Assembly: GCA_040954595.2 (NCBI GenBank)
Contig: CM082595.2
Span: 62,001 to 126,000 of the forward strand
DNA length: 64,000 nt
Reading direction: 5' to 3'
DNA from: Balanoglossus misakiensis
Taxonomy: Eukaryota > Animalia > Hemichordata
Shown here: piece by piece, positions 5,464 to 64,000 of the stretch
Layout of the letters: the number at the start of each line of letters is the position of its first letter
Position numbering within the stretch: the stretch's first letter is position 1
Position numbers and translations under genes: made by a program
Notes under the pieces: model-generated
The model's input: the letters and a program-made list of their open reading frames with translations, nothing else
What the model was told of the DNA's origin: nothing
Database searches by the model: none

Positions 5464-6774
5464 TTAAAGTTCCATCCAAGGAAACGTGTGATTAATCAAT
5501 CTGGCCAACTCTCTGTTGTATGGTCTGTAGAAATCGTAAAGTTTGGTTTCCAGTTCATGACTCAATACTGGTTTCGGTATCGTATGTGGCGAGCTAAACT
5601 GACACGAGGGCTCTGGTAAAGCAAGGCAGTATACGCCATATTTGGAGTTGAACTGGAAATGGTTTTCTGTGAAATATGGTTCTAGTCCCAAAAAGTTTTC
5701 TACAAGTTTCATCTGTTTTACAGGTGACTTCGACAGCTGTCCTCCGTCAAGGACCAATATTTGCTCCAAGGGAAAATAGGCGATCCACTTTTCCAAATGC
5801 TCAACGTACTTCCCGATGTTGATAATTTCTGTGTCGCCATTGACTTCGCCGTTTTCTCTCAGGACTGTCTTTTCAAATGTCGTTGTTACAATTGGTCCAC
5901 GCCCAAAGTTCAAGCGGGTGTGGTCCTTTTCGCCTTTAAGTCGCCTCGCTCTCATCCGCTCAGCTATGTGATGATAATCCGACACAGCTCTCTTCACAGG
6001 GTCCCGAACGAGGACGATGATTTTCACCTCTGGCGAGATGTCCGTCTTTATGCGGCGCGGCACTTCCGCGGTTATTAGGTATCGCGGAGTTTTCTCAAAC
6101 ACCTGTTGGCTTTTGGTCGAGTACTGCATCCGCGACCTGTAGTAGTCAATGCCTCGGTCATATGTCCAGTCGAAGAAGTGGACCTCGTTTCCAAGGGAAC
6201 ATGCGACGCCGGGATGAGATCGAAGAAAAAGCCCAAGGGCAGTGGTGCCTGCTTTCTTTGCTCCAACGTTAATGACCGTTGGCAGTCGCTTTTGATAGCC
6301 GAGGTCAGCCAACACGGAGAAATACACTTCCCTTTGTGCGGCGGCAGACAAATCCATGAAGTTGTGAGTTGTCGCCAGAGGTACGGATGACTTTGAAGCA
6401 TAATCTTTCCCGACAAAAAGAATAGTTTCCATAACGCGACGGTGAGCATCATCCGGGACCTCACGCAACTTTCGTCGCAGCAGTTTTTTACCCGAACTCG
6501 ATCTCAGCATCGACTGATAAAATTTCAGTTCTTTTTTAGGAATGACGGAACCTTTATCAATACTTCCCGCCTTTCCGACAAATGATGTGATATTTCGACC
6601 GTGTATCAGATTAAACATATTGGTCATTCTTTGCGAAGCCTGTTTGGGAACAGCGAACGATTTTAACTTCAGTGAGATGAAGTCGGAAAGTGTATAGGAC
6701 ATTAGAAATACCAGCATTGTGCCTATCAGCAGGCAAAGAACACAGGCCTTTTTCGGGTGTGCAGTGAAGACCAT
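5464..6774 (-). CDS. HS3ST: Heparan sulfate glucosamine 3-O-sulfotransferase-like (HS3ST family), single coding exon, about 436 aa from ATG 6774
   Basis: 5'-PSB loop LPTVINVGAKKAGTTAL, EVHFFD, FEKTPRY, 3'-PB motif VLVRDPVKRAVSDY, and C-terminal LYDFYRPYN. N-terminal hydrophobic signal anchor (ACVLCLLIGTMLVFLMSY), as in Golgi type II enzymes. Confidence 0.9.
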   Translation of the reverse strand: MVFTAHPKKACVLCLLIGTMLVFLMSYTLSDFISLKLKSFAVPKQASQRMTNMFNLIHGRNITSFVGKAGSIDKGSVIPKKELKFYQSMLRSSSGKKLLRRKLREVPDDAHRRVMETILFVGKDYASKSSVPLATTHNFMDLSAAAQREVYFSVLADLGYQKRLPTVINVGAKKAGTTALGLFLRSHPGVACSLGNEVHFFDWTYDRGIDYYRSRMQYSTKSQQVFEKTPRYLITAEVPRRIKTDISPEVKIIVLVRDPVKRAVSDYHHIAERMRARRLKGEKDHTRLNFGRGPIVTTTFEKTVLRENGEVNGDTEIINIGKYVEHLEKWIAYFPLEQILVLDGGQLSKSPVKQMKLVENFLGLEPYFTENHFQFNSKYGVYCLALPEPSCQFSSPHTIPKPVLSHELETKLYDFYRPYNRELARLINHTFPWMEL

Positions 6775-20277: not shown

Positions 20278-21692
20278 TACATACCTACTAGTATTAATGT
20301 ATGATATATCTACAGGGGTAGATTGTAAAAAGTGTATGGTTTGACATGGGAAGGGGAGGGGAGAGGTGAATACTAGCAGAATCCAGGTTTGTACTGTACT
20401 TCAGTGACCTTAAAATCTTCATAACCTCAACAGTTGTCTGTTGATGACCTTTACCCCCCCCCCCCCTCTCCACAATATGACAGTGGTAGATTATTGTTGC
20501 AAGGGTGATTAAAACTCATTAGTATCCACAGCCTATATGTGGTCTAGAATTGCGGGTGCAGTTGTCATCTGCAGGATCCAACATCTTGACATAATTGTTC
20601 TGTCAATCAGCTGAGATGTTTATCATCAATATGAATTAAAATTAGACACATCGTCAATCCAGAGTAGCATGGATACTGAACCCTGGTCTTGCTCCACTCA
20701 ATATATAATGATACAGTCTCTTGTCCCCCAGATGCACAGAATATTGTGGGTGGCCTTCTGGCTGTTCCTTACCCTGCAAGTTTTGACATGTCTGAAATGT
20801 GCAACTGGGTGTACGTATGCCTATAAAAATAGTAGAGGCATAATATGGCAAGGAAAGACCTGCAGCTGCCTTGTTATAAATGACGAATATCTGGTATAGT
20901 CACCAGTTGAATGAATGCTATATTAAACCCGGCTGAATCAGCTGAACCTGTTGTTAATCGGCAACAGAATGTCAGAGACATACAAGTACAGTTTGCTTGG
21001 ACATGCACGTATCTGCAATTACCTCCCATTGGTACAAATAAAATGAAACTCTATCCACTGCCCAGAAAGTGGCTAAATTTAGCTCCTCGTTCTGCTGGGC
21101 GCTATTAGCCGTAAGCTGATCCAGAGTTTAGCTGAGGTGCATTATTAGAAAACTAATCTGTCATTCTCAGTGGATTATTACAGTGACATTGAGAATGACC
21201 TGGAGATGACAGGCACTGGTATGTCTTCACTGACCTGACAACAAAATAAAAATAGCAAAACTAAATGTCGGTCTGTTTTTACGATGTTGTAGGCATGCAC
21301 ACTGTACAGGGTGTTTTATACATAAATTACCATTGTATTCTTGTGAAACAGCTAATCTCAGTCAAGGGTGGTTTTGGTAAATTTAGCATTGTACGTAAAT
21401 AGCCTTTGCCATATAGTTAATCTAGTTCCACATGACCCATGCTTAAAAGTTCAAACAGTTGTTTAGTCTGTTGTCTGGAATTTTCACATAAAATTATTGG
21501 ACAAGTAAGTTGAATGAGTCAACCTTTTAAGAGCTTTAAATTTTTTTTTACAGTTTTTGAAGTTGCAGCAATAGAGTATACAAGCACACACTGTACTTAC
21601 ACTATTTTACTTGGTAATAATATAGAAAACAACTGATAATTTGTGTCTCTATTTCATTTCTCAGGAACTCTGAAGGACAAAAAAAATAAAAG

Positions 21693-24600
21693 ATGGCCTA
21701 CCCACAACGAGGATCAACTCAACACAAACTTGAACAACAACTGGCAGCTCTAGAGGTCACCCCAGGAGGAAGCACACAACCAGGGGCTGTAACCACGGAA
21801 ACAAGCTACTCCTACTCTTACAAGACACCAACATATCAAGGCGCCCCCAAGAAATTTGCGCCAGTGACCGCGCCAAAGCCAAGATACACAGCCACAGGTC
21901 AGCAAAACGGACAGAAAGCCCCCTCGCCTCCTCCCCCGCCCGGGCCAGATTCATATTCTACTATATTGTCTTCCAGCCGGACTGATTATAATAACTCTAA
22001 TTTTCAGTTTGCACAGCCCAGCTCCACATCTAATGAAGACTATCTTCAGCATGGCCAGAGAGCTACCAAAGGTAGTGTCGTAGAAAAAAGCTAACACAAC
22101 TAATTTTTGGTTGTTGTGTATATTTTGGCTATTTTTTTTAGTTGGCTTGTGTGAATTTGTGGCTGAAAAGGCATGATGGTGACTTTAATGCACAAATATT
22201 TTCTAACTCGAGTGCATGAGTGATATTCTACATGTGAGTTGCATGTGAGCTTACACTCATATTGGAAAATGTGACCTGCCAACATTGCAACCCTGGGATT
22301 AAGGTACATGGAATTATTTGAGATAGCAGTACGAAAGAGAATTTGGTCAAGCAACAGTATTCAATTGATGTGTCTGAAAATGGCTAGGTCATGCATATTT
22401 GCATGCACTGTTAGAGAGAATGTCTTGGTTGCAAAATGAGTGCTCAACTGATTGAAATGCTAGCCTTTAACAAGACCATGAATCCTTATTGAAGACAAAG
22501 TACCATTCTGTTAGACCTGACAACTACTCAAAATCCCTAACCTTACTTCAAGCCTTACCTCATTGGTCAAACGCGGGAAGCTTGACCAATGAAAACCACT
22601 GTTACAATTTCTGTGGTGTGTCATATTCCTTCTTCTTGAAAAGTCTCTAAGCCACTTCTAAGTCCGCATGACTTTTTCACCTTCATTAGCATCTTAAACT
22701 TCAAACAAGAAAGCATGTTAAAAATAATTCTTTCTGTGAATTTTTTTTGCATGTTTTCAGGAATTATTTCTGCTACTAACACATCCCGCAATAAAGGTAA
22801 TTATCCTAACAACTCTTTCCTTTCACCTCTTATATAGTTGACATTCTTCTTTAATAATCTATATGCCTTGTTTCTCTGAATCAAACAACTTATCAAAGGT
22901 TGTGCCAATCTGGAATCTATAAAACATTTCCAGGAACAGCGTCTCGATCCTTTTATTTGGTCACATGACTACATGTAGATTGCTTATGTGTTTGGTTAGA
23001 GTAATCAGTTTCAAATTCAATTCCCCCAAGTTGGCATGAAATTCGAATCCCAATGTTTAAGCCAGGGTCAGTAAAGTTTGCATGCCAAATATATAATGTG
23101 TACCCTGACACAGTAGTTCCTTTTTAAAGTAGACGAATCTTCCTTTGCAATGTTATTCTACCAGTATGTTTCCATACAGCATGGAACAAAATAATCCTTG
23201 TAAATGCTAAACTACACTGTATAATAAATGCCAAACCGTTTACAAAGGCTGAATAAAGTGAGAGGCTGTCTGCACTTCTTTTAACCCTTTCAGAGCACCA
23301 TAGTTTGGTCCAAATCCACTGTTCTCCTTTATAAGGGGAATTGGGATGAAAGTGGATTGGTTTTACATGAATATATACATATTAACACATAACATGTAAA
23401 TATCATTCAATAATGGTGTACCGGTATTTCTTTCTCACTGACTCATGCTTACCACATGCTGTAAATTTTTTCTCAACACCAAACAATCCCTTTTCCAAGC
23501 TCTTCAAATTGATCTTACATCAATCAACTTTTTCTTTGTTTCATGTAAAATGTCATACTCTCTTACACATCAACTTTCTGTCTCCAAGACAACCAGGAAT
23601 TGGTCTTCATCTTTTTCATTCTTTCTCATCTTTTTTCTCTCTCTTCATCTTTTCTCTCTAGATCCACCTCCCCCTATTCCTCCAAGAGGAACTGCTTTCT
23701 ATGGACATCAACAAATAGGTTCATCTCATTCGTATTGCTCTCAAAATCATCAAAATTACTGTGGGGATTTTTTTGTGGAATTGTGGGAATTATGACATAA
23801 TTTTATCATCATGCAATTTTTTCTTTGGTTATGATGTAGTCTTATGAAGATATGATTATATATTTGCATACATACAATGTATTGTCTGTCAGTGAGTTGA
23901 AGTGAGCATTTTCAACAATGTTTCGGAAAATAGTACTGATGAACTCCCTTGAGTATTAATAATGGCACAGTGTTATGAGCTGCCATGGTTTCATTTTCCC
24001 CCTGAATCCTCAATCTAATGCCTTACAACATTTTCTTTCAGCATGCAGGTATCTGCGACTGCCAATTCAAGGTCCTTACGGCCAAAACATTAACAAAGTT
24101 TGCTTTGCACTCTCTAACACTATTAATGTCAATAATGACCCTGTCACTGAAATGAAACCATTGATATATATACCACTTGCATTTCTTTTAATGATATCAG
24201 TGTGTGTAAAAATTATTTTCCTCTCTGAATAGTGCCACACAGTTCTGTAATGAGAAATGTCCCATCAGTTTCAAATTTCAAATCAGTTCCAAAGTATGGT
24301 AATCGTGATATTTTGATAAGCTGACATATCGCTAATTCACACCACATTTCTCAGTACATGTATATTGATCACTCCATGCTAATGAAAACATCCATCAACC
24401 AAATTGTGTGGGGGTGAAAGAGTTTCTTTCTCAGAAATCAAATGTTCATGTAACAGTGAAATATTATGTCCTGTTGTTTTATGTAAATAATCATCACTGC
24501 AAACTATCAATAAATAAATACACATGCATTATGAAATTAATATTCGTAAAATTTGAATCAATGGTTTCAGTTTCACTGACTGGTAACCACGTTTGCAATT

Positions 24601-27600
24601 TTAGAATTTTCAGTAATATTTAATGCCAGTGTGAATGTTGGTAGTTTTACTGTAGATGCTTACTTTCTCTGTCTTGGCCACTTTTTACAGGACAGCCACC
24701 ACCGCCTCCTCCAAAGCCAAAAATTCGGCCGCAATATAACACAGGTACAGCACATAAATTGCACCAGCTATCTTTAGACCTTCTAACCCCCATATGTTTC
24801 TTCTTTTTTGCACAACTTATTGTTTTAGATCATTCCATTGAGCAAAATAGGAATGACAAGTGCTCATACTAACTTTTTCTTGCATTAAATTTGCTTGTTG
24901 TATTGTGTGTGTTAACCTAATCATCTGCAGATATGAGTCATAATAATCGGAAAATGTATGTAGTAATCTTTTTTTGTCACAAATTATCAGCATTTGTTTT
25001 TAAGCTCTCATGGTTAATTTTCTAATCTGCTTTTCACTTGGCATACAATCCTGTGTAACACACACACGTACACACACACATGGTGAACAACCATATTTTA
25101 ATTGTCAAAATGGTGTCGCGAATACTTGACTCTCACATTAATTTGATTGAGAATGTCCTGTAACATATTTGTACATTCCCGTAATACACCATTCTACATA
25201 TTTGCCCTTGATCATAAAAATCCACTGCTTTATAAATACCACCTAGATCATTGACATGTTATTTGTATCGAATTCTCACATGCAGTTAAATTCTCAGTAT
25301 GTAGAATGTACTATAAATACTCCTAAGTTATCAAACGCAGCTGCTCGATGAAGCTGACATTCCCAAGCGTAGATTATTCCATCAAAACACAGAGTCTTAG
25401 TTGAGGATTTATAGAGGATGTATGTGAACTACAAAAACGGAAATTTGAGCTTAAAATATGATTTGTGCATGGGCAATGTTAAACTGTCAGAACAGATTTG
25501 TTGGTATTTTGCACACATTTCATGGAGGCAGCCATAATACATATTTTTGATAGAGAAGGGTAACTCTAAGAATTGAGAAAGTGGAACTCCATCCTTGAGT
25601 TTTTTCTTCAATATTCCTTGAGGCACATCAAGACTTGGCTTATCATTGGAAAGCTGAAAACTCAAATACATGTATACCTGAATTATAAATTTACCTGTTA
25701 GATTTAAGTGTTAATATGCGTTACATATGAGTAATGGGTTTGCAGTTTCTTTGAGGTTTGCTTGTAAAGGCTAACAAAATAATACATGTACACATTTCCA
25801 TGAAATGGTCACATGGTGTTTGCATATAACTTTCATGTGTTCGGGATAATTTTAATTACTGGTGATAGGTGTACATTGTATAGCCATGCCATTTTCATTT
25901 GTTAGTACACCATCTGGCAGTCACATCCACAAAATTGAAGTCTTTGTTTTTTTTATGTCTGTTCACAGGTCTACCAACCTACAAGCCAACTGTATATGGG
26001 GAGACCACCGACACAACTGACGACCTCCCACCACCTCCACCACCACCACCCCCTCCAGAACCCGAAACCTATGCATCACAAGGAGGCACAGCGTTCCCAC
26101 CTCCCCCACCAGTATCAGATGATCTCCCTCCTCCCCCACCTCCTCCCGGTGTGACCAGTTACACATACACCAAAACGGAAACACACCAAGTCCCCCAGTC
26201 ATCTTCCCCTCCCCCTCCACCCCCACCACCAGCTCCTACTTCGTATGAACCACCTCCATCTTACGGCCAGCAAAAATACTCTCTGGCTAGGACAGTCCCA
26301 CCTGCTCAATCATACAGCACACCTCCCCCTCCCCCACCAGCCCCTCAAACCCACATTTATCAACCAAGGGAACCCCAACCACAGACATATCACAGGCCTC
26401 CTCCTCCACAGACAACAACATATGCCCCTCCGGCACAGCCACAACCACGGGAAGCCTACCAGCCCCCTTCTCCCCCTCCTGCTCCTGCAAGCACCTACGT
26501 CCCCATGCAGTCCAAGTACAGCCCACCAGGCTCCAATTACCCTCCCCCTGCCAACACCTATGCGCAGCCCACCAGCAGCTACGCCCAGCCATCCAGCAAA
26601 GGGGAACCCGCAACAACCATGTACAAACCCAGTGCACCTAGCAGCTACACCGTTCCCAAACCCTCGGACCAACCCATTGCCAAGCCAGATAAGACCGGAA
26701 CGGAAGCAGAAGTCGATGCCCTAACCAACTTGTTGGTTCAGAATATGGAGAATGCTGTGGAACCCGATTTCTTTGGTAAGTGGAAATTTCACAAAATTGC
26801 AAACTGATGTGGTGCCGAGGTGGACTTATCCCCTTTCTTGCAGTGGTGGCACCTAGACCTGAACAAGCGAGAGCTAGCCACGAATGGGTCTGTCTTCAAC
26901 CAGGACAAGGACAGTTGGTTCTTCTTCCAAACGCATTCAAGTCATTCAACCTACAAAATTGCCAGCTACTTTCATTTTACATTAGTTACAGTGCTGAATA
27001 CTGGAGGTTTCCTTGCACTGTCTACAGAGTAAAACAAAATTTATAGGAATATTGAGCTCTTTATTTCCTGTAATCTTTGTAGGTACTTGTGCCAAGTGTG
27101 AACAGAAAGTATCAGGAGATGACAATGGCTGCTCAGCCATGGACAAAATATTTCACATCAATTGTTTTACCTGCGAGACCTGTCAAAGCAAGCTACGAGG
27201 CAAGCCTTTCTATGCTCTGGAGGGCAAAGCCTATTGTGAAGAGTGTTATCTTGTAAGTCTCATTCAAAGATGATTTTCCTATAGGTTACTTTCAAGGTCT
27301 TGTTATGGGTTATGTAGTTGACTTGTTACACAATATGTCCTCGTAATATAGTTTCTCATCAGTCATCGTTTTGAATTGTGACAAGTTGAGCCATTTGTTA
27401 TTAATACACTCATCATTTTAGTAGACTTTATTCTGATTTGGACAGGTAACTCACAAGTTATGATTCAGACACTGTCCACACACTGATTCCCAAACCAGGC
27501 TGCTGAGCACTGTTCATGAAATTCTGGTCCGGGTCTGTTTTACTTTAAAGTTGATGCTTTAGATATGATGTGTATTTATCTGAGTGTTCTAATTGTGTTC

Positions 27601-29394
27601 GCAGGCCTCCCTGGAGAAGTGTTCTGTGTGTTCTACACCAATTATGGATAGAGTAAGTATCATTCTACTAGACACCTCTCCCCTATAATTCTTGTGATCA
27701 CTGATGCAACTATATTTGTATGGAAAATGGATGGATATACCATTATCTTCTTAGTTTCGCATAAGTTATTCAAAGAAAAAATTTGAAGTGTTTGTCATTT
27801 GTAAACTTGTAGTACTCTCATGTCAAAAGTTGAAAATCGCGATCCAGATTTTACATTTGAAACCCATGTAATTTGTCCAGCCTGTGACACAATGGTCTTC
27901 ACACATTGGATTCCACAACTGACAATGCAACCTTTCATACCAGACAGGTGTTTAGCCACTTAATCCTGGCTTTGAAATACATGTGGCACATTCATGAGGG
28001 TGTCACAATACCATGGCTAATTCCCATGTTTGAATACAGGAACCAATGATGCGTGCACATAGCGTGACCTGCGCAAATTCACCGGTCAACTGTTCATTCA
28101 GTGCAGCATGAGTTCACAGAGGTAGCTAGTGAACAATGTTAATGCTGACAGCTCTGTTTGTAGTGTGTCTGCTGATCCAAAACAAAAGACACACATACAC
28201 ACACCATGGTATTGCTGACAGCTCTGTTTGTAGTGTGTCTGCTGATCCAAAACAAAAGACACACATACACACACCATGGTATTGCTGACTGACTCTGTTT
28301 GTAGTGTGTCTGCTGATCCAAAACAAAAGACACACACCACAAACATACACACACCATGGCATTGCTGACAGCTCTGTTTATATGATGTTTGCTGTTCTGA
28401 TACAAAACACTAAATTTAATAGACAGACAAAATAGACAAAAACAAAACCACTTCTTACACAGATCTTTTTAATGTTGTAGATACTTCGTGCAACTGGTAA
28501 ACCCTACCACCCAGCTTGCTTTACCTGTGTGGTCTGCGGGAAAAGCCTGGATGGAGTTCCTTTCACTGTGGATGCAACCAATCAGATTCATTGTATTGAA
28601 GACTTCCATAAGTAAGTAACAGGTTGAGTGATTAGTCCACAATGTAGTGAAGGCAGCTGGCTAATAATACTGAAAATTCAATTATGATAAAAAGTTATCT
28701 AATTTTTATTCTAATATTGATAATTGCTGTTGGTTAAATGTGTGTTTGTATGTTGTATATGTAAGTATGGTGAAAGTTTGCATTGTGGCCACTAGGTGGC
28801 TCTATTTATTGAGGAGCTGTCAGCAGATGAAGGAGACATGCAGGTTTTCAAGAACTGATGTTTGATAATTTCATTGACACTTATGCATGTTTCCCCCCTT
28901 TTCATTTCCAAAACAGGAAGTTTGCTCCGAGGTGTTCCGTTTGCCAGCAACCAATAATGCCGGAGCACGGCCAGGAAGAAACCGTGCGTATTGTGGCCAT
29001 GGATAGAAGCTTCCATGTGCAGTGTTACAAATGCGAGGTGAATGAAAATCTTGAATCTGTCAAAATTCTGACTTGTTGCCTGGTGCCTGTCCACTTGTCA
29101 GAAGGAGAATTTGTGTTATTTTTCTTTATTTTAATCAACTGTTGTATATCATGTGCATTCGAAATATTCGTAAGTGTAACTAACACCCTGGCAGGAAGAG
29201 GGTTAAGCAATAATTGATGGTTTACTTCACTTCCACTGAAATTAATGTATTCTTTCATGTTGCAGGATTGTGGCCTTCTGTTGTCGTCCGATGCTGATGG
29301 ACGTGGCTGCTACCCACTGGACGATCACATCCTTTGCCGTGACTGCAATGCCGGACGCATCCAAACCCTGACATCTAGGATGTCTGACCAGTAG
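21693..29394 (+). CDS. LPP: Zyxin-family LIM protein, lipoma-preferred-partner (LPP/TRIP6)-like: Pro-rich N-terminus and three LIM domains
   Basis: Exons 21693-22071, (22761-22796), (23662-23718), (24691-24744), 25969-26775, 27083-27252, 27605-27652, 28481-28611, 28917-29037 and 29266-29394 are in frame (643 aa with the bracketed micro-exons, 594 without). Motifs: [26 protein letters not shown]1-type sites, [71 protein letters not shown]. Confidence 0.93.
28143..28379. repeat. Intronic ~70-bp tandem repeat (~3.2 copies)
   Basis: Units start at 28143, 28213, 28283 and 28363 (tgctgacagctctgtttgtagtgtgtctgctgatccaaaacaaaagacacac...). Confidence 0.9.
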
Positions 29395-50021: not shown

Positions 50022-51068
50022 ATGGCATCCTATCACAACAACACGACCAATACATCTGTTCCCATGCCAACGGAGGAGGCCGATGGAGACGGCTGGGAAT
50101 TGAAGCTGACGGACCCGACTTTTTTCCACGAACAATTTTGGGTGGCGATCGTGTATGGCGTCGTGGCTGTGTGGGGCACCCTAGGCAACTCTGTAGTCAT
50201 GGCGACCATACTGCGCAATAAGTTTCTGCGCACCAACACCAACTATTTCATACTTAGTCTGGCATTTGCTGACTTAATGGCGTGTGTGATTCTTTTCCCC
50301 GTCAAGGTATTCCCTATCCCCCACGTGTCGCCGGGATTTGGCGGGGAGCTTCTGTGTCGTTTGATAATATCCGAGTTCCCGATGTGGACCAGTGTTGTAT
50401 CATCGGGTTTTCATCTGGGAGCAATAACCACAGAGAGATACGTTGCCATAGTTCACCCATATAAGTACATTTATTTCACTAAGACTAAGGCGGTGCTTTG
50501 CATCATTAGTTTATGGGCCATGACACTCATTTGCGAACCGTACCTAATTTACATATATACCTATCATGATGGCCACTGCACGACCATTAACACAGAAACA
50601 GCCCGACGGTACACACAGGTCAGTGCCATATTTCTCTTTCTGCTGTCGTATGTGCTTCAAATAATCATCATGCTCATCGGCTACACGGCGATTTTTAACA
50701 CCCTGAAGACAGAGGAGCGTAATATCAACTCTCTGTCCGGCGCCAACTTGGACATGGAACGCGAAAAGCTGACCGCCCGCAAAAACGTTGTCAAAATGCT
50801 AATGATCGTTGTTACCACCTACTTTGTCTGTCTGACGCCCAATCAGATTGTGTGGTTTGGCTTCAACGTGGGCCTGACCGTCGACTTCAACAGTGCCTAT
50901 TACAACATCACAGTGATGCTCACATTCGCCAACTCTTGCATGAACCCCGTTATCTACGCAATACGAAACCGTCGGTTTCGAACGGGAATGAGACTGTTAT
51001 TTTGCAAAGGGTCTGCGCAAGTCAGTGATTTGTCCACGGTCGCTCACACAGAGACTCATGACAACTAG
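50022..51068 (+). CDS. Class A (rhodopsin-like) GPCR, peptide-receptor-like (galanin/allatostatin/somatostatin-type), 348 aa, single coding exon
   Basis: Seven hydrophobic segments with GN (TM1), LAFAD (TM2), ERYVAIVHP (TM3), W (TM4), VVKML...FVCLTP (TM6) and NSCMNPVIY (TM7). An acceptor tttag sits directly before the ATG, and a candidate 5' UTR exon donor is at about 49144. Confidence 0.93.
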   Translation: MASYHNNTTNTSVPMPTEEADGDGWELKLTDPTFFHEQFWVAIVYGVVAVWGTLGNSVVMATILRNKFLRTNTNYFILSLAFADLMACVILFPVKVFPIPHVSPGFGGELLCRLIISEFPMWTSVVSSGFHLGAITTERYVAIVHPYKYIYFTKTKAVLCIISLWAMTLICEPYLIYIYTYHDGHCTTINTETARRYTQVSAIFLFLLSYVLQIIIMLIGYTAIFNTLKTEERNINSLSGANLDMEREKLTARKNVVKMLMIVVTTYFVCLTPNQIVWFGFNVGLTVDFNSAYYNITVMLTFANSCMNPVIYAIRNRRFRTGMRLLFCKGSAQVSDLSTVAHTETHDN

Positions 51069-51562: not shown

Positions 51563-54500
51563 GATGTGTATTATGACTGACAATATAATGTCATGCCCTC
51601 CCCTTGTTCTATTTTATGACTGACAATAAAATGTCATACCCTTCTCTAGTTTTGACTACGATAATGTTGTGCCAAACTAGTATTGTAATTTTCTGCCCTG
51701 ATGACCCATTTCTGTCCCGCGATTACAAACAATTCACGCCCAACCTCAATAAAATGCCATGCCGTGTACTATGTGACAATAACCTGTCATGTCTAAAATG
51801 GTCACCCCTTGGTACTGATGCGGCATTAATACTAGGACGTGTACTGATCTGAGTGAATCAGATCCCGTGAGGAGTACGGTGCCCAGAGTACAACTGTCCA
51901 AGTAGAAAACGCCGAGTTTAAATTGCTTAATCTGAGATCTCCCCCCCCCCCCCCACACACACAATTCAGGCCCACCCTAAATAAAATGCCATGCCGTGTA
52001 CTATGTGACAATAACCTGTCATGTCTAAAATGGTCACCCCTTGGTACTGATGCGGCATTAATACTAGGACGTGTACTGATCTGAGTGAATCAGATCCCGT
52101 GAGGAGTACGGTGCCCAGAGTACAACTGTCCAAGTAGAAAACGCCGAGTTTAAATTGCTTAATCTGAGATCTCCCCCCCCCCCCCCCACACACACAATTC
52201 AGGCCCACCCTAAATAAAATGCCATGCCGTGTACTATGTGACAATAACCTGTCATGTCTAAAATGGTCACCCCTTGGTACTGATGCGGCATTAACACTAG
52301 GACGTGTACTGATCTGAGTGAATCAGATCCCGTGAGGAGTACGGTGCCCAGAGTACAACTGTCCTTGGAAGTAGAAAACGCCGAGTTTAAATTGCTTAAT
52401 CTGAGATCTCCCCCCACACAATTCAGGCCCACCCTCAATAAAATGCCATGCCGTGTACTATGTGACAATAACCTGTCATGTCTAAAATGGTCACCCCTTG
52501 GTACTGATGCGGCATTAACACTAGGACGTGTACTGATCTGAGTGAATCAGATCCCGTGAGGAGTACGGTGCCCAGAGTACAAACGTCCCAGTAGAAAACG
52601 CCGAGTTTTGCTACATCTGAAATCCCCCCACGCCCGCCAAGGTCTTAGCTTGCTCTCCGAAAAATAGGGGAATGTTACGAATACGTGCGAGCGGACGATT
52701 GTGTTGCTAATGTCGATGAGGCGAATTTACACACAGCACTAATAATAGTGTCTGCCACGATATAATGTCACGCCCTCCCCTTGTTATATTTTATGATTGA
52801 CAATAAAATTTTAAGACCTCCCCTAGTTCTGTACTTTGACTAACAAATATACCATGCCCTCCCCTAGATGTGTATTATGACTGACAATATAATGTCATGC
52901 CCTCCCCTTGATCTATTTTATGACTGACAATAAAATGTCAAGACCTCCCCTAGTTCTGTATTTTGACCAACAAATATATGACATTCCCTCCCCTCCCCTA
53001 AATCTGTACAATGACTGGCAATATGTCAAGCCCTCCCTTTGTTCTGTACTTTGACAATTATCTGTCATACCCTCCCCTAGTTCTATTTTATGACTCACAA
53101 AATAAAATGTCATACCCTTCTCCAGTTTTGACTACGATATACAATAAAATGTCATGCCCTCACCTAGTTTTGTATTTTGACTGACAATAAAATGTTTATG
53201 CCCCCAAGTTCTGTACTATACATGTATTAAATAAAATGTAAAGCTCATCCCTCGCCATGTACTTGGTAATATATTATTAGTAAAATGTCTGCCAACTCCT
53301 TGCTTTATACTATTATGTTGTGCTACGTGATAATAAAATGGCCTAGTTCTGTAGGTTACTGTAGGCACCCTTTCAAGCCTGGCTTTCTGGGAATGTATCC
53401 GAATTTCTCTTTTATATAGGATATCCGGCCAGAAAGGGTTAACAAAATGTCATGCCCACCCCAACCTCTGTAACATGACTGACAAAATGTTGTGCCAAAC
53501 TAGTATTGTAATTTTCTGCCCTGATGACCCATTTCTGTCAAGCGATTACAAACAATTCAGGCCCAACCTCAATAAAATGCCATGCCGTGTACTATTAGCT
53601 CTGGACTTATGCGCTGTTTGGGTCTACGGAGAGCAGCGTAGACCCAAACAGCGCATAAGTCCAGAGCTAGTGTACTATGTGACAATAACCTGTCATGTCT
53701 AAAATGGTCACCCCTTGAAACTGATGCGGCATTAACACCAGGACGTGTACTGATCTGAGTGAATCAGATCCCGTGAGGAGTACGGTGCCCAGAGTACAAC
53801 TGTCCAAGTAGAAAACGCCGAGTTTTGCTACATCTGAGATCCCCCCCCCCCAAGGTCTTAGCTTGCTCTCCGAAAAATAGGAGAATGTTATGAACACGTG
53901 CGAGCGGACGATTGAGTTGCTACCGTCGATGAGGCGAATTTACACACGGCGCTAATAATTGTGTTACACCAAAACTGCCCTCCTGTCACGACTATCACAC
54001 CAAAACTGCCCTTCACCAATAAATAATTAAAAACACCGACTAAGTCGGCGAAGTCTTTACACGACGTGTCTTCCTAACGAGGAGCCATTTTTATCTAAAT
54101 TTGCATATCAAGAAGTCACGCCTTCTAGCCTCGTTCGCGGATTACTTCCTATTGGTACCATACTTCCAATGGAAGAAGCAGAGGAGTCTGGATAACCTAG
54201 ACCAAGTGATACAAACTCCACCCCTATCTATCCGAATTTCTCCTATATAGGATGTCCAGCCAGAAAGGGTTAACAAGATGTCATGCCCACCCCAACCTCT
54301 GTAACATGACTGATAAAATGTTGTGCCAAACTAGTATTGTAATTTTCTGCCCTGACCCAGTTCTGTCCCACGATTACAAACAATTCAGGCCCAACCTCAA
54401 TAAAATGCCGTGTGCTATGTGACAATAGCCTGTCATGTCTAAAATGGTCACCCCTTGGTACTGATGCGGCATTAACACTAGGACGTGTACTGATCTGAGT

Positions 54501-55771
54501 GAATCAGATCCCGTGAGGAGTACGGTGCCCAGAGTACAAACGTCCCAGTAGAAAACGCCGAGTTTTGCTACATCTGAAATCCCCCCACGCCCGCCAAGGT
54601 CTTAGCTTGCTCTCCGAAAAATAGGGGAATGTTACGAACACGTGCGAACGGACGATGGTGTTGCTACCGTCGATGAGGCGAATTTACACACGGCGCTAGT
54701 AATTGTGTCTGCCTCGACTATTACACCAAAACTGCCCTTCTGTCACGACTATCACACCAAAACTGCCCTTCAAAACACAGACTAAGTCGGCGAAGTCTTT
54801 ACACGACGTGTCTTCCTTACGAGGAGCCATTTTTATCTGAGTTTGCATACCAAGAAGCCACGCCTTCCAGCCTCGTTCGCGGATTACTTCCTATTGGTAC
54901 CATACTTCCAACGGACGAGGCAGAAGAGTCTGGATACTTGTATCACTTGGTCTAGTAACCTAGACCAAGTGATACAAGCTGCGCCCCAATCATGGAAAAT
55001 TGACAGTTTCTCTTGCTATAGGATTTCTCGGTGTGAGAAACAGGAAAATTGGATTTCTTCAGTGTTGTGCAGGGCAGTGACCTAGTATTTCCGTGACAAT
55101 AGATATAGAACTGCATGGAAAATTCACAACATAACTGCTTCTGGCATGTTAAATACTTTCACCCCAAGTTGCCTGAGTAGAGGTCCAACTTTGCCATATA
55201 AAACATAGATACATTAGATTAAAGACAAATCATGGTGGTGAAATAGTTAAATAATAACACATGATAGCAAGGGCAATATCACGATTTGAAGCCTGCACGA
55301 TAATATTGATGATGCCCGAGCCACAGGCGAGGGTATCATCAATAATATGGTCAGAGAGCACCAGCCCGAGGGCAGGCTTCAAATCGTGATGTTGCCCGAG
55401 CATCGTGTGTTATTAATTTTATTACGCCGAACATTTGAACGTATATGTACATACACTGCAACATAGAAGAACGTAGGGTTGCGTTCATGTGGTACATTGC
55501 TGAGAATGTAAAATGTCTCGATCTTCCAAGAACTATACCTACTTCGAACTTAGATAATTTTGTAAAATATCGTTCAGTTGAACAGGTGTTAAGCCTATGT
55601 GTCGCTTTGAAGCCATAGATGAGGGAGTTGACTGATTGTGGAGGAAGCCATTGAATGACAGTTTGGTACACGCAGAAGTCGTGCGCAGAACACCAAAACA
55701 ACCCAGCAGGCAATATCAACAGGGCTTTATCAACTCTTGCCATGTTATATCACTTTTTTCTTTATGTCACA
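51563..55771 (+). repeat. Composite repeat block, copy B, including a four-copy ~230-bp tandem array (about 51730-52620)
   Basis: Tandem units start near 51730, 51961, 52194 and 52419, separated by variable poly-C. About 52788-55771 is collinear with 10515-13470. Confidence 0.9.
53596..53669. mobile_element. 74-bp palindromic mini-transposon with 33-bp perfect TIRs and a 9-bp TSD
   Basis: GTGTACTAT|TAGCTCTGGACTTATGCGCTGTTTGGGTCTACG-GAGAGCAG-CGTAGACCCAAACAGCGCATAAGTCCAGAGCTA|GTGTACTAT. It is absent from the other copies of the host repeat. Confidence 0.93.
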
Positions 55772-56184
55772 TGATTTTTTTTTGAAAAAAATGAAGAAAT
55801 TTTGAATTAAAAAAATCATGGGTTATAGCTCATGAAAATCATCAAAATATGACAATTTTCCGACTTTGCGAATTTTCAAAATTTCTTCATTTTTTAAAAA
55901 CAAATCATGGGTTATAGCTAAAAGACTAAATAAATATCTTCCTCATTACGCTTGCTGGTTCCTGAGTTTCTTGTTCAGGTTCACCTAGTTTGTTATATGA
56001 AGCTCGGGACCTTATTCTTTATCTTTGTCCCCTTCCAGGGTGACAATTCATCATACAAATAGTACAGATAGCCCATAGTCAGATTTCCTTCTTTTTTTTC
56101 TGATTTTATTACATTGAAAAAATAAAGCTTCCACATCAGAACAACATCGAAATGTAGCAAACATTATGTGATTTTCTTCTTTTC

Positions 56185-59100
56185 TTATGTTGCTTGTTCT
56201 CTTTCTTCATTGGGTGAGTCATTCCTTTCCTGTTCCCTCTCTGCATTTCCCCTGGTCATCACTTCAAAGACAAACTCAGCAAATTCAATCACAGTGATGA
56301 TTGAGAGACCAATCCACAATCCCAGCGCGCCTCCTACGTCTGCCCACAGCTGATTCGGCTGCAAAAAAGTAAAACGAGCACTTAACATAAGTTTACTCAC
56401 ACTTGAAGTTCAAATGATTGAGATAGGCCTATGTCTGTTTCTGGCCACTAGGGGCGCTGTCATTATGGATCCATATCAGAAAATGGCCGCCATGGGTCAA
56501 TGCATAAGTGTACAAAGTTTCATGCTTTTAACCCAAAGTGCATGATTTTTTGGTTAACTAGCCCCACTAATAGGCCTATTAGGGTAGTGTGAGAGATGAG
56601 AATAATTGCACAGTCGTCAAAGTGCTTCCCAATTGTAAATTCTGTGGCGTAGTTTCAGATATGTACCGGATAGTCCTCCACTTCAGACATAAGTTCCAGA
56701 TTTAGCGTCTCATAGTATATTTCCACACGTGCCAGATTTTTGCTGATGAATGAAAACAAGAACAGACAAAATATCAGTTACCAATGAGACATGCTTATCA
56801 TTCAATAAACATGGTGTACAATACCAAACTGTATAAGAAACATTATTTGCATATCATTCTGATAGCAATTTTCTGTCTACATTGGAGAATATATTAGTAT
56901 TTTTCTAATGTCAAACACATGCCTTGGTTGGCAATGATCACAGCAAATTTTATCAGTTATGATTATATAAATGTTTAAATAATTATTACCGAACAGAATT
57001 TTTCCAAGGTTAATTCATACTGTTGGACAATATAGTTCTTGTAATAGACATTATTCAATAGAATTTGTCCCTTACCTTATTTTTTCATCTGAATTCATCA
57101 GTGATCTCATCTTTGGATTGACCGCCAACAGGCTGCTCATCAAACGTGGCTAGCAACAAGCAAGTTGAAAAGAATGTGGAATACTAACATTTGAATTTCG
57201 TTTCTAATAGATTCAATGATAAATTCAAATACATTTGTTAATCTTTTTTACATGGTAATAGTGTTTGTTGTCTATTTCTGTATTTCTTGTAACAGTGCAA
57301 GGTTCGCTGTAGGTACCAATCAAGCCCTGTTACAGACATGTCCTAAAGCTACATATGATTTGCAGTTTATGACATACAAATTAGTGCAAGTGGGTGTAAA
57401 CATTTTAATAATTGTGTTGCGACTTACTGAATATGACGTCGATGGCCATGATGTTAGTGACATCATCTTCATGTACTGCATGACGCTGTTGATACGAATT
57501 AATAACACAGACAACAATGTGAGTAAATTACCGAAGACCTCTGGTCACATGGTCCTCACATGTCACTTGCGAGTCAGCTGATTGTGTAAAGGTATTGAAT
57601 CTATACCATATCAGTGTCTTTCAAGAGAAATCAAAAGGGTAATGCCATTATTACTTACCTGCATGGTTGTCGACAGTTGCAGTTAAGCTTACCACGCTGA
57701 TAAAAGAAATACATTAACTGTACGCAGGCATCTAAATAAGACAAAGAACAAAATTAAATATCATGGTTATACAATGTCCCCAATGATAATGACCCATTGA
57801 ATTAAAATCGCATGTATCTTCACTTTGCAGATGCAATAAAATTACATAAAAATGCTTTGGTCTTTGTAAATCACCTACCCTGTGTTTTATCAAGGATGTC
57901 ACAGCGTGGCTTGTTGTTGTAGAAAGAATTAACACATCCACACAAATTGAACATCTCTCTATTTAAACAGTCTTTCTGACAAGCCTGCAAATTTAATGAG
58001 TAACCCCGTGAAAAGTAATTAACATTAAAGATAAACAATTGTTTATGTGTAGGATAGTGCTTGAGTTTTGGATACATGCATGTGATTATCTTTTCCATTT
58101 TGTACATAGCAATTGTTATTGAAGAGCTTCCTCCAATCATGAGTCTCGATACATTAGGTATTTTCTTTAACCGGATGAGTTGACATTTTCGTAAATTGAT
58201 TAAAGAATGATTTATTATTGGAAAATGTTAATGACATGTCACACTTGGATGAAGCTCTCTGGACATTCACTTTGATACCATTTGACTTATCAGAAATTAA
58301 TAAATGTGTTCTGACTCACCATTATTGAATAAAAATACTCCTCCGAGTCCACACGAGTTTGATATGTACAATTACCATGAGGATAAGGCAAACGACTTTC
58401 ACCACGCTGTATATAAAACACATCTCTGATGTTAACATACGTTAAATGAGTTTAACAAGCTGGATAAGAATTCCTGTCTCATAATTTAGCAAACAGGTGT
58501 ATCCGAAAGATGGGTCGCAAGTAGAAAGTGTTATGAAGGCCGATGAAGTTAATTGTAGCAGTTTGTAAGACTGTTAATTTGAGACAGTGCTGATGAGGCC
58601 AATTCATGTCAATCGACAACAAATTTTGTGTTGTATATGGTTTGTGCATCATCATCATTCCATGTTCAAATTATCTGGTTACTTTTCACCATGGCACAGA
58701 ACAACATAACACAATATAGGCCTAACTGAATTCTGACATGGAAAAAAACTCGTGTTTAAAATTTGTCACATATGATGACAAATACTGAAACTTGTACATA
58801 TCTAAATCTTACCCCTTTTATAATAACAGAAGTCGCTGTTCCTGTTTTGGCGTCAATCCCCTCGTCTCCCGGAAAAGGAGTGGTGTACGGATCGTGGATC
58901 ACCAATCGAGCGCCTGTTTTTTGTCCATATATGCTGAGATACTCATTCTCTTCAGCAAATAGTGTCAATTTTAAACCTGGAAATTGTCAAAATTCTTACG
59001 TCCTAGATCATGACTAGTTGTCACAGTATATAAAAGAGTGTGGTTGTATCCGCATATTTTACGGATTTCCAACGCTCGCCCCTAACTCTGCATGAAATCT

Positions 59101-61344
59101 TTCAGTATCAGCAGAGAATTATCACTGTCAAATGCTTACCAAAGTCAGAGCCAGTGTTTGTTGCTTTGCGTATGGTAGAACCATTCCTTCCGTGGTTGAA
59201 CGTGTAACAGTTGCCGTGTACATCATCCTGGAACTGATAGAAATCCCTGAAATAACACATTACAGGAGTTACGAACTTCTACATACTTTAGAAAATTCTA
59301 ACCTTTAATTCATTCAAAACACTACGTGTACAATTGATTCAAATCTGACCCCTAAATACAAATTGATTGGTATTACAATTTTATGGGAGGAATTCATATC
59401 ACCTGTATACTTGTGACAATATCTTTTAGTTTGGTTCACTTTATGTGAATGTTACATCAATCTTACCCATGTTACAAAAGGGTTATTAAATTATTTGTAC
59501 ATACTCGATATTACACTCTCGTTGATCATATGTGCACTGTAAGATCAGATCTTCTGCTTGGTGTCCCATTCGCCTGACCTCTTCCGGGGTCAACCTGAGC
59601 ACGTTCTTTAAATCGCTGAAGTCCGGCGTGTTGCTAGACACTAGAAAATGGCCCCACAGTGGCGGATATTCATTTGGGATGAAGTCCGTTGGTCTGTTAA
59701 CGAAGATGTTTTCTCGAAACTCTTCATAAATGTTTGGGTCATCAGTAATGCTCAGATATTTAGCGTTCCATCCTGTGCCTGCTGTTGCGTCATGCACAAC
59801 TGAAAACACAGCCATAATTGCAGTAGATATTATTCTCTTTGGTGACTCTACAATCATTTCTCTCTCTATTGGTATATATGTGAAATTTTCCACTGGTTTC
59901 TTCCTACATAAATGAGTTCTATGAGTATGCCGATATACATATGGGAAATAGTATCTTTAGAAATCTAGATGTTACTAAATCTGCACAATTTATGATCTCA
60001 GAAACTATACTACAAGAAATTCACACTTTTCTTGGCATTGTCTAAATTTTGCAGAGAAGTTACAGATTACGATTCCAGACAACTCTTACCGTATTCACAA
60101 TCATTTTCATCGTCACCAAAATGGCAGTCATCAAAGCGATCGCATACACGGTTGGCAGGAATACACTTTGCCACGATGCGGTTACCATCTTCAAACCTTG
60201 AATTGCAGGTGTATTCATTCTCATTGCAAACTGTGAAAATAATTATAGCATTGTTAGTAGCCTTGGTTATGAAGACGGAAATACGGGTTACAAATTTTCT
60301 GTTTGGGCAGATTGGATATTGGCTGGGTTTTATAGTTAACAATGATTAATATTTAGTTGAAATCAATTTTCTGGTTTAAAAATGATGCATAACATACGTG
60401 TACAGTTGTATTCATCAGTACCATCACCACAGTCATTGATGCCGTCGCAAGCGAGAGATGAGTCAACGCACCAACCACTGGAACACTGCAACTGATGGTC
60501 CTCACAGGTCACTGAAAGACAGCAACAGGTAATCCAAATTAGGCGTTTGGATCTCTCTTACTGCTTGAGGGCAAGACAAATGTGATTGAAGATCTTTTGT
60601 TTTGCATTGTATATAAGGAAGTCTGTATATCTTAATAAATAGAAATATTGGCTCTTTCTCTGATATTAATATCTTACGAAAACTGAATATTCATCGTTTA
60701 AAACAGATAATGTGCACTAGGTGCAGACAGTTGGAAACAAACATTCATGTGATCACTTATCAAAGGGTTTAATTATGTGATAATTACCGGCACCATTGCA
60801 AAATAGTTCATCGCTACCATCCGCACAGTCTGGCACCATTGGTTCATCACAGTACAGATGTTGACGTATACACTGACCATTACGACAGCGGAAGAATCCT
60901 TCAGGACATACGTCTGAAAGTAAACATGACACTTCAACTATCACAGTTTGAGGATGGCACTTGTCTTTTAAGAAATTGATGACACAATAGGCCTTTTGAT
61001 GAGACTGTTGCAGCACAAATGCTTACATACTGATCTTACCCCCCCCCCCCCCCAACCAAAGCTGTAGTAGGCTATAATCAGTTCAGCACTCCCTACTAAA
61101 ACTGCAAAGCTTAAAATTGTTAACATCGTTTTCTCAAAAGTTAGCTAATTATGACCTACTATTTTCACAGTCTACCTCGTCTGCAAGGCCGGGACAATTT
61201 GCTTCAATGTCACAACGTTTCTCGACTGGTTTACAAAACAATCCGCATGGAAATGTGGTGTCCGGACATGAGTCTGCATTGAAAGAAAATATGTAGTCAT
61301 GAACTACGGCATGAAGGGATGTGAACACAATCAAAACAAAAATG

Positions 61345-61391
<47 letters not shown>

Positions 61392-63613
61392 TTATTTATA
61401 TAGCGTCAGTATCCACAAAAAATGTGATCAATGATGCTAAAAGCAAAAATACACTACAATAAATGGCTAAAAAGCAGATTTAAAAACTAAAGTTTTAACA
61501 TTTGATTTAAAAACAGATAAGTCTGGTGCCTGGCGAATGAACCAAAAAGGTTAAATTAAGACTGGAATATCTGTTGGATTTCATTACATTGTATGATGCA
61601 ACAAATTTTCATCTCTAATTTGGGGCTGACAAAAAATTTGATAAGAATAAAATTACAGGTATATCAGATCCGAACGCATCACGATTTCTGTAAGAGGAAA
61701 CACAGTAAACAAAAATGGCAACACTCACAGTTGGAGCAATTAGATTCGTCTGTTCCGTCTGTGCAGTCCATGATACCATCACAGACATGGTAACCATCGA
61801 AACAGAAGGTGCGGCCCAATTTACTGCAGAGGAATTCACCAGGCAAACAATCATCTTTGGGAAAAAAGGAAGAAAATAATTTACACATCAAAATACAAAA
61901 ATGGACTACACATCTTCCAAACACTTGACTATTAACGCCCACGACAAAAACAAATTTGTATAGTATATGGAATGAAAGATGAACTTCCCTTTGCACGATC
62001 ATGAAATGTGTTTTTCCTACAAGTCAGAGAGAATCACTATTTGTTTCCTTTATGTTAACTGTTGTGCCTGTACTGGTTAGTGGGATAACGGCAACTGTGT
62101 GTGGAAAAAAAGTTACCTTGTGTGCAGTTGTATTCGTCACTTTTGTCAAGGCAGTTAAAATGTAAGTCACATCTTTTAGAGCTGTCGATACACTGACCGC
62201 TGTCACACTGGTATTTTCCAGGAGAACACTCAACTGCAATACAAATAGTATAATGATGATGATAAAAGACAAAACAGGACTCGTGATAATTTCTCAGATA
62301 AATTCTCTGTAATTGATACTTTGTTCAAACAAAACAACATCTATAGCTACTCGCTAAACTGTGGCTCCGCTCCCGTCCTCATTCCCACCAAAGTTACTCA
62401 TGATTCACCAAGCATTGGCATTGGAGGTTGATCAGACACTTCAACAATACAATAAGACAGTATGTATACTACGAATACATCTTATTCGGTGAGCCAAGCA
62501 CTGCCTTAATGGGAACTTACCGTTAGTACAATTTTCTTCGTCTGTTAAGTCTGACAGCAAACCGTAAGCACAGTCATAAGAACCATCACACAGCTTTGAG
62601 AACTCGACACAGATATGTGATATCGAACATTTCAACATACCGGGAGGACACTGGTCTGTTGTTGAAAAATGTAATACATGTACACATGCGTAAGTATATT
62701 CAATTTGTCATGAGATAGCCAGTATTTAGCTATCTCAGTATTATGCGGGTAGACCTGAAAGTTGTAGTGAACAAAAATCATTCACAAAGTATTTCTAAAC
62801 ATACTTACAGCTCTCACAGTCTTCTTCATCTGTCCCATTTTCACAATTTGGATAACCATTACATCTAATCATCATCGCCGTATCATTGTGGTCAAGATTA
62901 TTGCAATACCAGTTTAATTCCTGTACTTGATCTGTGAAGTGTCAGACATAAATATGATTAACCAAATCCAAGTATGTATCTATCTATCTATCTACATAAT
63001 AAACTAGCATCTGCCTTTTCCCCCAGCACATCTGTGCACTGTGTCTGCATGTCTCCATATTGTATCTGCCTGCCTACATGTCTATCATTCTGTGTCAGTC
63101 TGCCTGCTTACCTGACTGACTGACTGCCAGTCTGTCTCATTTACTGTATTGAATCTCTTTGTCATTTGTATATTATATTGTCTGTTGATACTTATTTCAA
63201 AGACTGACCTCCATGACAGCTCATCTCATCTTTGCCATCCTTGCAATCCATTCTACCATCACATAGCTTGTCTTCAGGAACACACTGACCACTGTCACAC
63301 TTGAACTTCCCATACGGACATTTGAAATAATCTTGGAAATGGAAAAAAAATTATCTTTATATGGAATCTTCTCCCTATGGCAACGAGAAAGCAAAAATCT
63401 TCTCCCTATGGCAACGAGAAAGCATTTCAAATTTACATAAACATTTGAGGTTGTGCTACTTACAGGTATTACAGAACGACTCATCAATACCAAGCTGACA
63501 GTCTGTAATTCCATCACACATATTTGACGTGACCAGACAATCATCCTGTTCACTTCCTCCTCCGCAGAGTGTGTGATCATACCCACTTGGACAGGTCATA
63601 TAACTGGTTGGCG
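56185..63613 (-). CDS. DEG/ENaC (amiloride-sensitive sodium channel family) subunit with at least 10 LDL-receptor class A repeats; 5' end outside the window
   Basis: LDLa exons: 63464-63613, 63209-63331, 62809-62931, 62521-62655, 62117-62233, 61729-61854, 61160-61273, 60788-60913, 60398-60511, 60090-60230. Channel exons: 59505-59799, 59140-59246, 58813-58976, 58320-58406, 57879-57984, 57659-57731, 57428-57485, 57076-57149, 56667-56742, 56185-56358. All junctions are GT-AG and in frame (about 827 aa in the window). Channel motifs: [45 protein letters not shown], Cys-rich thumb (CQKDC..CGC..C..C..CNCRQPC), [10 protein letters not shown], and TM2 [21 protein letters not shown]. Confidence 0.9.
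60090..63613 (-). other. Array of 10 LDLa-module exons (one degenerate) within the channel gene
   Basis: Examples: [105 protein letters not shown]. These show the six-Cys pattern with the C-terminal D-x-S/T-D-E calcium-binding motif. Confidence 0.92.
61345..61391. repeat. (AAT)n microsatellite in an intron
   Basis: About 15 uninterrupted aat units. Confidence 0.9.
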
Positions 63614-64000
63614 CTGATTAAAAGCAAAACAAATAATGATTAGCAGATATGCAACAACATTCTATATGGTGAAGAATATCTAGCAAGTACAGAATAAAAT
63701 GTAGTGTATTATTAATTGTTGCCTTGTGGGTGTATATTGTCAGGATATATAACTCCTGTTATATATATAAATCAGGAATATGACAATATTCTTAGTTTAA
63801 AGGAGCCGGCCCCACCTTAAAAACATTTTGTTATGTTCACAGAATGTTTTCAATGTTTAAGATGATTAGGTAGATTCGATACAAAATTAAGTAATCACCA
63901 TGAGCTTTTTTGTGGGTTATATTTTTCACAATCTTTCCATGATGCATGCCAAAATGATACAAACTTATCTGATGTCTGAAAGCAAACAATGCCTTTATTT

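Follow-up and report, generated by a model that had tools for sequence, protein, structure and literature searches.

The stretch studied here comprises 64,000 nucleotides of the hemichordate Balanoglossus misakiensis (contig CM082595.2, positions 62,001 to 126,000 of the forward strand) and is referred to as the window. Between positions 63613 and 56185, its minus strand harbors an array of exons encoding LDL-receptor class A (LDLa) repeats, which lies in frame with the core of a DEG/ENaC ion channel. This feature, pointed out in a preliminary description of the sequence, was confirmed. The window was read over 55000-64000 and a gene model was built from AG/GT boundaries. The model consists of 20 exons sharing one reading frame of 827 codons, whose only stop is the terminal TAA (56187-56185), and AG/GT ends were found at all 19 introns. 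Thus, the stop-free splicing of ten LDLa exons into a C-terminal DEG/ENaC core had been described with the right coordinates. Since the splice sites were picked among candidates (the donor of the eighth LDLa exon is uncertain by 6 nt), the open frame alone is weak evidence, and the orthologues constitute the real control. Judged from its sequence, the locus is predicted to be the 3′ three-quarters of one gene for a DEG/ENaC cation-channel subunit bearing an LDLa arm on its finger.

The channel gene and its orthologues

The ten LDLa exons (63613-60090) encode 423 amino acids, carry one module each and are all of phase 1-1. They correspond to repeats 4 to 13 of the orthologues described below. 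All of them matched Pfam Ldl_recept_a, seven with scores over the curated cut-off of 24.1. Below it were L1 (63464-63613, repeat 4; 14.8 bits), which is the first exon visible in the window, L3 (62809-62931, repeat 6; 22.3 bits) and L7 (61160-61273, repeat 10; 15.0 bits). L3 is degenerate, as is its counterpart in the orthologues: it possesses four Cys residues, while the other nine repeats have six, and Asn at two of the acidic positions. The remaining exons are L2 (63209-63331, repeat 5; 45.9 bits), L4 (62521-62655, repeat 7), which shows a conserved loop insertion, L5 (62117-62233, repeat 8), the poorly conserved L6 (61729-61854, repeat 9), L8 (60788-60913, repeat 11), which is the most conserved repeat, L9 (60398-60511, repeat 12) and L10 (60090-60230, repeat 13), the conserved last repeat adjoining the finger. 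All four acidic Ca2+ ligands are kept in seven of the ten repeats. The array as a whole is acidic (84 D/E versus 27 K/R) and contains seven N-glycosylation sequons, and its 423 visible residues do not include a furin-type R-x-K/R-R site. The intron between L1 and L2 harbors an exact 31-bp duplication (63365-63424).

The ten core exons extend from 59799 to 56185. E1 (59505-59799) encodes clade-specific finger helices with the motif PPxW..F...S.TPD[FY]SDL as well as the GHQ motif, and E2 (59140-59246) encodes GNCYTFN. They are followed by E3 (58813-58976; palm and beta-ball, ASC 29.3 bits), E4 (58320-58406), E5 (57879-57984) with the Cys-rich thumb, E6 (57659-57731), also belonging to the thumb, E7 (57428-57485), E8 (57076-57149) in the knuckle region and E9 (56667-56742). 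The last exon (56185-56358; ASC 28.9 bits) contains TM2 with a G-L-S filter, a short cytosolic tail and the TAA stop; 74 nt past the stop, a putative polyadenylation signal AATAAA (56105-56110) is located. Matches to ASC (PF00858) were obtained for four of the eight core exons scanned, two of them over the cut-off. The TM2 exon shows a hydropathy peak and aligns with TM2 of ASIC1 and FaNaC, the latter being its best sequence match in the PDB, and the filter is kept. All motifs named in the preliminary description (GHQ, GNCYTFN, the Cys-rich thumb and the G-L-S filter) are present in the exons, and, as far as sequence can tell, the pore motifs of the model are intact. The sequence scores of the channel to ENaC and ASIC tie, and the trees were without a labelled ASIC. 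The N-terminal HG motif, TM1, FPAVT and repeats 1-3 were not found within the 64-kb window. A candidate exon at 63975-63898 was excluded, as it did not match the N-termini of the orthologues.

A search with the finger exon yielded, among 35 candidates, four proteins of Ptychodera flava or Saccoglossus kowalevskii, all of which contain PF00057 and PF00858. The spliced window model is 65, 63, 51 and 57% identical to them, the two highest values referring to approximately 820 amino acids of two Ptychodera proteins. The junction between the LDLa exons and the core (60090/59799) aligned gap-free with all four orthologues, and the same was true for the core junctions except for one indel of 1-2 residues near the knuckle. 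Moreover, the 290-nt intron between L10 and E1 contains neither AATAAA nor ATTAAA. Because of the gap-free junction and the missing polyadenylation signal, two separate genes were rejected, and the earlier proposal that array and core form one gene was upheld. In the full-length orthologues (ASC match of one orthologue, 268.7 bits), the HG motif, TM1 and FPAVT are followed by 13 LDLa repeats and the core. The N-terminal elements, which the preliminary description had suggested looking for, were not seen in the window and were found in the orthologue models P0001, P0002, P0003/P0005 and P0006. They are missing from P0004, whose N-terminus is mispredicted, so that three of the first four orthologues carry them before the array. 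The place of the array between TM1/FPAVT and GHQ in these models bears out its assignment to the extracellular finger region. The 13 repeats also imply that a homotrimer would carry 39 modules, in line with the number of at least 30 proposed before.

The same architecture was recovered repeat for repeat in the database models XP_070562378.1, XP_070561544.1 and XP_077867820.1. Repeat sequences are specific to their position: in three orthologues, 9, 8 and 8 of the ten window repeats found their best match in the repeat of the same number. Between Ptychodera and Saccoglossus, repeat 11 is 72% (Cys excluded) and repeat 2 66% conserved, roughly on a level with the palm (73%) and above the thumb (51%). 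In a tree of 125 rows, from which 17 of 142 rows had been dropped as partial or redundant, the window model grouped with these acorn-worm proteins at a support of 100, which points to an enteropneust hemichordate as the likely source. EGF and YWTD propeller domains are absent from the four orthologues scanned, which disclosed only ASC and Ldl_recept_a, and no EGF family was detected in Pfam scans of the window exons or the orthologues.

The gene nearest to the channel gene on its downstream side that could be identified lies on the opposite strand (50022-51068, plus strand) and is a single-exon gene for a rhodopsin-family GPCR of 348 amino acids (7tm_1, E 1e-41). Between the two genes, at 51725-53203, a tandem array with 232-bp units (3.8 copies, 95%) gives way to one with 43-bp units (10.4 copies), and related copies seem to run on to approximately 54700. 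Near-identical translations at 13000-13365 and 55351-55749 (minus strand) represent an interspersed repeat, one copy of which lies just downstream of the channel gene. Farther away, a long open reading frame at 5464-6894 (minus strand; Sulfotransfer_1, E 3e-22) presumably encodes an enzyme resembling heparan-sulfate sulfotransferases, while a 245-codon frame at 4267-5004 (minus strand) gave a weak thioesterase-like match (4HBT_2, E 0.038). Proline-rich exons and a LIM-domain exon at 21690-29217 (plus strand) resemble a zyxin/LPP-type gene.

Position of the insert in the channel fold

In 25 of 26 measurable ambulacrarian rows, the first LDLa repeat starts 30-38 amino acids past PAVT, and this repeat carries its own clade-wide signature. 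In 37 of 45 rows, the distance from the end of the last repeat to GHQ is 70-95 amino acids; it is longer in the remaining eight, and those of them that were scanned hold other modules there. The fold was assessed on models of homologues (P0001 and P0041) rather than of the window protein. A Saccoglossus paralogue with two repeats (P0041) gave a model with a pLDDT of 88 and a pTM of 0.81, in which the repeats are placed after the first short finger helices (98-112) and ahead of the later ones (220-290). It superimposed on ENaC gamma (6wth_C) with Z 33.5 and an rmsd of 2.7 over 346 aligned residues, on FaNaC with Z 32.2 and on ASIC with approximately 30. The core of the orthologue P0001 likewise matched the ENaC/ASIC fold (Foldseek E 7e-21). 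In ENaC, the GRIP domain resides between alpha1 and alpha2 (PMC6197857). By helix order, not by residue-level superposition, we infer that in these models the LDLa insert sits where ENaC carries this protease-gated domain.

The channel thus resembles vertebrate ENaC in its fold and, as inferred, in the finger position of a regulatory insert. It differs from it in the kind of insert, which in ENaC is the small GRIP beta-domain with its furin sites, whereas at least 423 amino acids of disulfide modules, without a furin motif in the visible part, are present here. FaNaC/WaNaC, whose score ties with that of ENaC, share the fold and the finger as ligand-sensing part, but possess a pocket for small peptides and no appended modules. 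Among the PDB sequence matches listed (the best 60 of 71), no name indicated a protein combining the two domains. The ESM Atlas returned only ASC clusters, at 0.84, which we treat as a lead only.

A family with exchangeable modules

An exhaustive search, from which the best 150 representatives were taken, was combined with the earlier matches and gave 142 rows with a core. LDLa repeats before the core were found in 57 of these rows (among them the window model and one locus represented by two models), and 38 of the 142 hold the N-terminal HG/TM1 part followed by LDLa repeats. In a further homologue search, 39 of the 50 matches listed carried both domains. Rather than one fusion, a large family of database models across several phyla was encountered; the preliminary description had suggested a search for the co-occurrence of ASC and Ldl_recept_a in metazoans and had considered uncharacterized predictions possible. 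The carriers include the hemichordates Ptychodera, Saccoglossus and Glandiceps, echinoderms (the crinoid, starfish and brittle star genera Anneissia, Acanthaster, Patiria, Asterias and Amphiura), the decapods Penaeus, Panulirus, Macrobrachium and Palaemon with 6-15 repeats, the gastropods Plakobranchus and Biomphalaria with two repeats, and the acoel Symsagittifera with one.

Among the ambulacrarian paralogues, the first and the last repeat are constant, and the cassette enclosed by them varies, being made up of LDLa, kringle, PAN, CUB, TSP1, SRCR, F5/8 or other modules; paralogues with CUB plus LDLa also occur. On the same base, the length of the arm varies from 1-2 to at least 13 repeats. 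Exon shuffling is a general route by which modules of phase 1-1 spread. In the amphioxus relatives, F5/8, kringle and Xlink take the place of LDLa: finger inserts of 770-1340 amino acids composed of F5/8, kringle and in some cases Xlink were observed in P0014, P0060, P0072 and P0077, of which the named ones belong to amphioxus. The sea-urchin matches among the rows listed are without any of these modules. P0012 and related rows of the sea-urchin type show an acidic low-complexity insert with R-x-K/R-R sites at the same position of the finger, which suggests, from sequence, that an ENaC-like proteolytic control may exist in invertebrates. LDLa-less relatives retain the core plus a shorter version of the finger motif.

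The origin of the architecture was studied with groups that were named after the first tree had been seen and with a quick model. A single origin of the ambulacrarian and gastropod LDLa channels was rejected (p-AU 2e-75), and the gastropod channels grouped apart. A single origin of the ambulacrarian, decapod and acoel channels was also rejected (p 0.0003), but not after addition of the LDLa-less P0126 (p 0.59). The members of a shrimp cluster in Logan that were scanned (four of nine) matched neither LDLa nor the core and gave no evidence on the junction.

Family members are named 'uncharacterized', 'degenerin-like', 'LRP-like' or 'GRL101-like' in the databases. The last two names were seen for P0016, P0047, P0147, P0215 and P0219 in spite of their ASC domain, P0016 being truncated just past GHQ. 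Both identities were rejected, that of a GRL101-like GPCR because domain scans of the relatives revealed no LRR or 7TM, and that of a lipoprotein receptor because the repeats are devoid of the needed W/F and the orthologues hold only ASC and Ldl_recept_a. By title and beginning of the abstract, no paper describing the LDLa-DEG/ENaC architecture was found, subscription literature being thinly covered and absence from print unproven; nor did a functionally characterized example, of which the preliminary description knew none, turn up in the literature searched. As far as covered, the main texts of PMC9234716, PMC9949801, PMC9822975, bioRxiv 261990 and PMC10507113 do not contain the word 'Lipoprotein', and the covered part of PMC9545775 mentions LDL solely for GPCRs. 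PMC10507113 reports uncharacterized ambulacrarian clades. Its supplements contain members of the family, one with visible LDLa repeats; six accessions looked up were absent from the files covered. In the alignment rows covered, the insert is largely gone, and the covered text is silent on it. The loss of most of the insert from these rows and the labelling of some members as LRP or GRL101 make the family easy to miss. We concluded from the sequences that a large modular DEG/ENaC subfamily is present as database predictions and is apparently undescribed in print.

The nearest precedent for a fusion of modules and channel is provided by EGAS-1 to -4 of Caenorhabditis elegans ('EGF plus ASC domain'), in which a DEG/ENaC domain is fused to extracellular Cys-rich modules (PMC10424705). 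These orphan proteins carry EGF modules, in contrast to the LDLa modules found here.

Possible ligands and regulation of the channel

Binding of RAP by members of the LDLR family requires a conserved W/F aromatic forming a lysine clamp, and folding of LDLa needs Ca2+ (PMC8239462). Two residues before Cys4, this aromatic was found in none of the ten window repeats, in one of 62 orthologue repeats and in 34 of 250 repeats of the wider clade, as compared to 274 of 749 repeats of 28 LDLa-rich non-channel controls; the related sequences in these counts are not independent. In LDLR, VLDLR and LRP, LDLa repeats likewise stand in tandem and have acidic Ca2+ sites, but W/F occupies this place in six of eight VLDLR repeats. 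Since the required aromatic is missing from all ten repeats, ligand binding of the lipoprotein type, or by the RAP lysine clamp, is unlikely for this array. Of the preliminary statement that LDLa repeats bind proteins and lipoproteins, the lipoprotein part is thus unlikely to apply here, while the part on proteins is retained in the following reading.

Our tentative proposal, to which we give slightly less than an even chance, is that a specific extracellular protein binds to the arm as a partner and thereby regulates the channel, shifting its opening. It is based on the position of the insert, on the combination of a fixed base with a variable cassette, and on two analogies. The finger of FaNaC recognizes its peptide ligand (bioRxiv 2023.02.01.526556), and the LDLa domain of Neto2 contacts GluK2 and is required for GluK2 modulation (PMC12618232). 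The LDLa domain of Neto1/2, accompanied by CUB, touches the kainate receptor, which is a ligand-gated channel, and alters its gating; Neto1/2 are, unlike the protein studied here, separate type I auxiliary proteins with one LDLa and act on another channel family. According to the proposal, the missing exons for HG, TM1, FPAVT and repeats 1-3 would lie beyond 64000, and the arm, likely of 13 repeats, would occupy the GRIP position between the first and the later finger helices. Ca2+ would stiffen most repeats and have a structural role instead of a signalling one. The arm may be anchored on the finger by its conserved first and last repeats, and the cassette between them may set the partner specificity. 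The partner, probably bound in another way than by the lipoprotein/RAP lysine-clamp mode, would move finger and thumb and hence the TM2 gate, as has been proposed for ENaC when its GRIP wedge is removed.

Several points weigh against partner binding. The canonical ligand-binding W/F is missing, which agrees equally well with a purely structural arm. The repeats 4, 6, 9 and 10 are conserved only by 28-37%, P0002 is without repeat 6, and all LDLa exons are of phase 1-1, so that skipping of any one of these exons would leave the frame intact. The model of a full-length orthologue with 13 repeats was too unreliable in the array to show its shape (mean pLDDT 53.5, pTM 0.40), and every orthologue is itself a gene prediction. 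Finally, the EGAS proteins were silent in oocytes (PMC10424705).

The arm might instead be a rod, acidic and stiff with bound Ca2+, that is attached to matrix or cuticle, and force on it would gate the channel. Tether models exist for nematode degenerins, and the length, acidity and sequons of the arm, its lack of the soluble-ligand aromatic and the matrix-type modules TSP1, Xlink and F5/8 of the paralogues would suit such a rod, as would a published clade B that unites MEC-4/MEC-10 with uncharacterized ambulacrarian channels (PMC10507113). We regard this as unlikely, for the arm length varies widely on the same base and the clade was not placed beside degenerins in our trees, which were without a known degenerin. 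It is quite unlikely that the array is a scaffold only, which directs the localization, clustering or trafficking of the channel or brings in a partner subunit, with gating by peptide or pH or constitutive activity. A pure address tag would need neither an insert at the gating position nor a first repeat with a clade-wide signature, although LDLa-less relatives manage with the same core and a shorter finger motif, the LDLa exons can be skipped in frame, and Neto-type CUB/LDLa proteins are auxiliary subunits (PMC12618232).

The GRIP-like position and the R-x-K/R-R sites in the inserts of LDLa-less relatives, sea-urchin ones included, would also agree with a lid: the array or its base repeats would hold the channel shut, like the inhibitory tract of ENaC, until the linkers are cut, and the modules may dock the protease. 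This is improbable, as the linkers between the repeats are short and the visible array has no such site; among five orthologues, it occurs only in two Ptychodera proteins, inside the disulfide-bonded repeat 8. A sensor of Ca2+ or pH, in which loss of Ca2+ collapses the arm and thereby gates the channel, would draw on the acidic ligands of seven repeats and on the Ca2+ requirement of LDLa folding (PMC8239462). Such a sensor is highly improbable, since it leaves the varied non-Ca2+ modules of the paralogues unexplained, and millimolar Ca2+ in seawater or body fluid would saturate the sites. Equally hard to credit is an annotation artefact, by which the LDLa exons would be part of another gene, separate or nested, or would mostly be removed by splicing. 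The gene structure is predicted here from DNA, exon skipping would be frame-neutral, and some models of the group are mispredicted (the N-terminus of P0004, the truncated P0016), but the core alone would be without TM1 and FPAVT, the junction aligns gap-free with all four orthologues, its intron is without a polyadenylation signal, and the spacing is fixed across hemichordates and echinoderms.

Beyond regulation by a bound partner, the proteins might form a family of receptor channels with a base of two LDLa repeats and a cassette exchanged by phase-1 exon shuffling (LDLa, kringle, PAN, CUB, TSP1, SRCR, F5/8, HYR, ShK), each member being opened directly by its own protein or matrix ligand. We consider this possible but doubtful. 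The stimuli of DEG/ENaC channels given in the literature covered are protons, ions, small peptides, bile acids, proteolysis and force. Should the receptor-channel reading be true, it would mean ionotropic signalling by large extracellular ligands that predates the split of echinoderms and hemichordates and possibly the divergence of bilaterians. Receptor-type modules at a gating position, varied between paralogues, represent a natural test of gating by protein ligands or by a built-in tether. The family may likewise serve to test the coupling between finger and pore, its two-repeat members (such as XP_077861955.1) being small enough for expression and for solving their structure.

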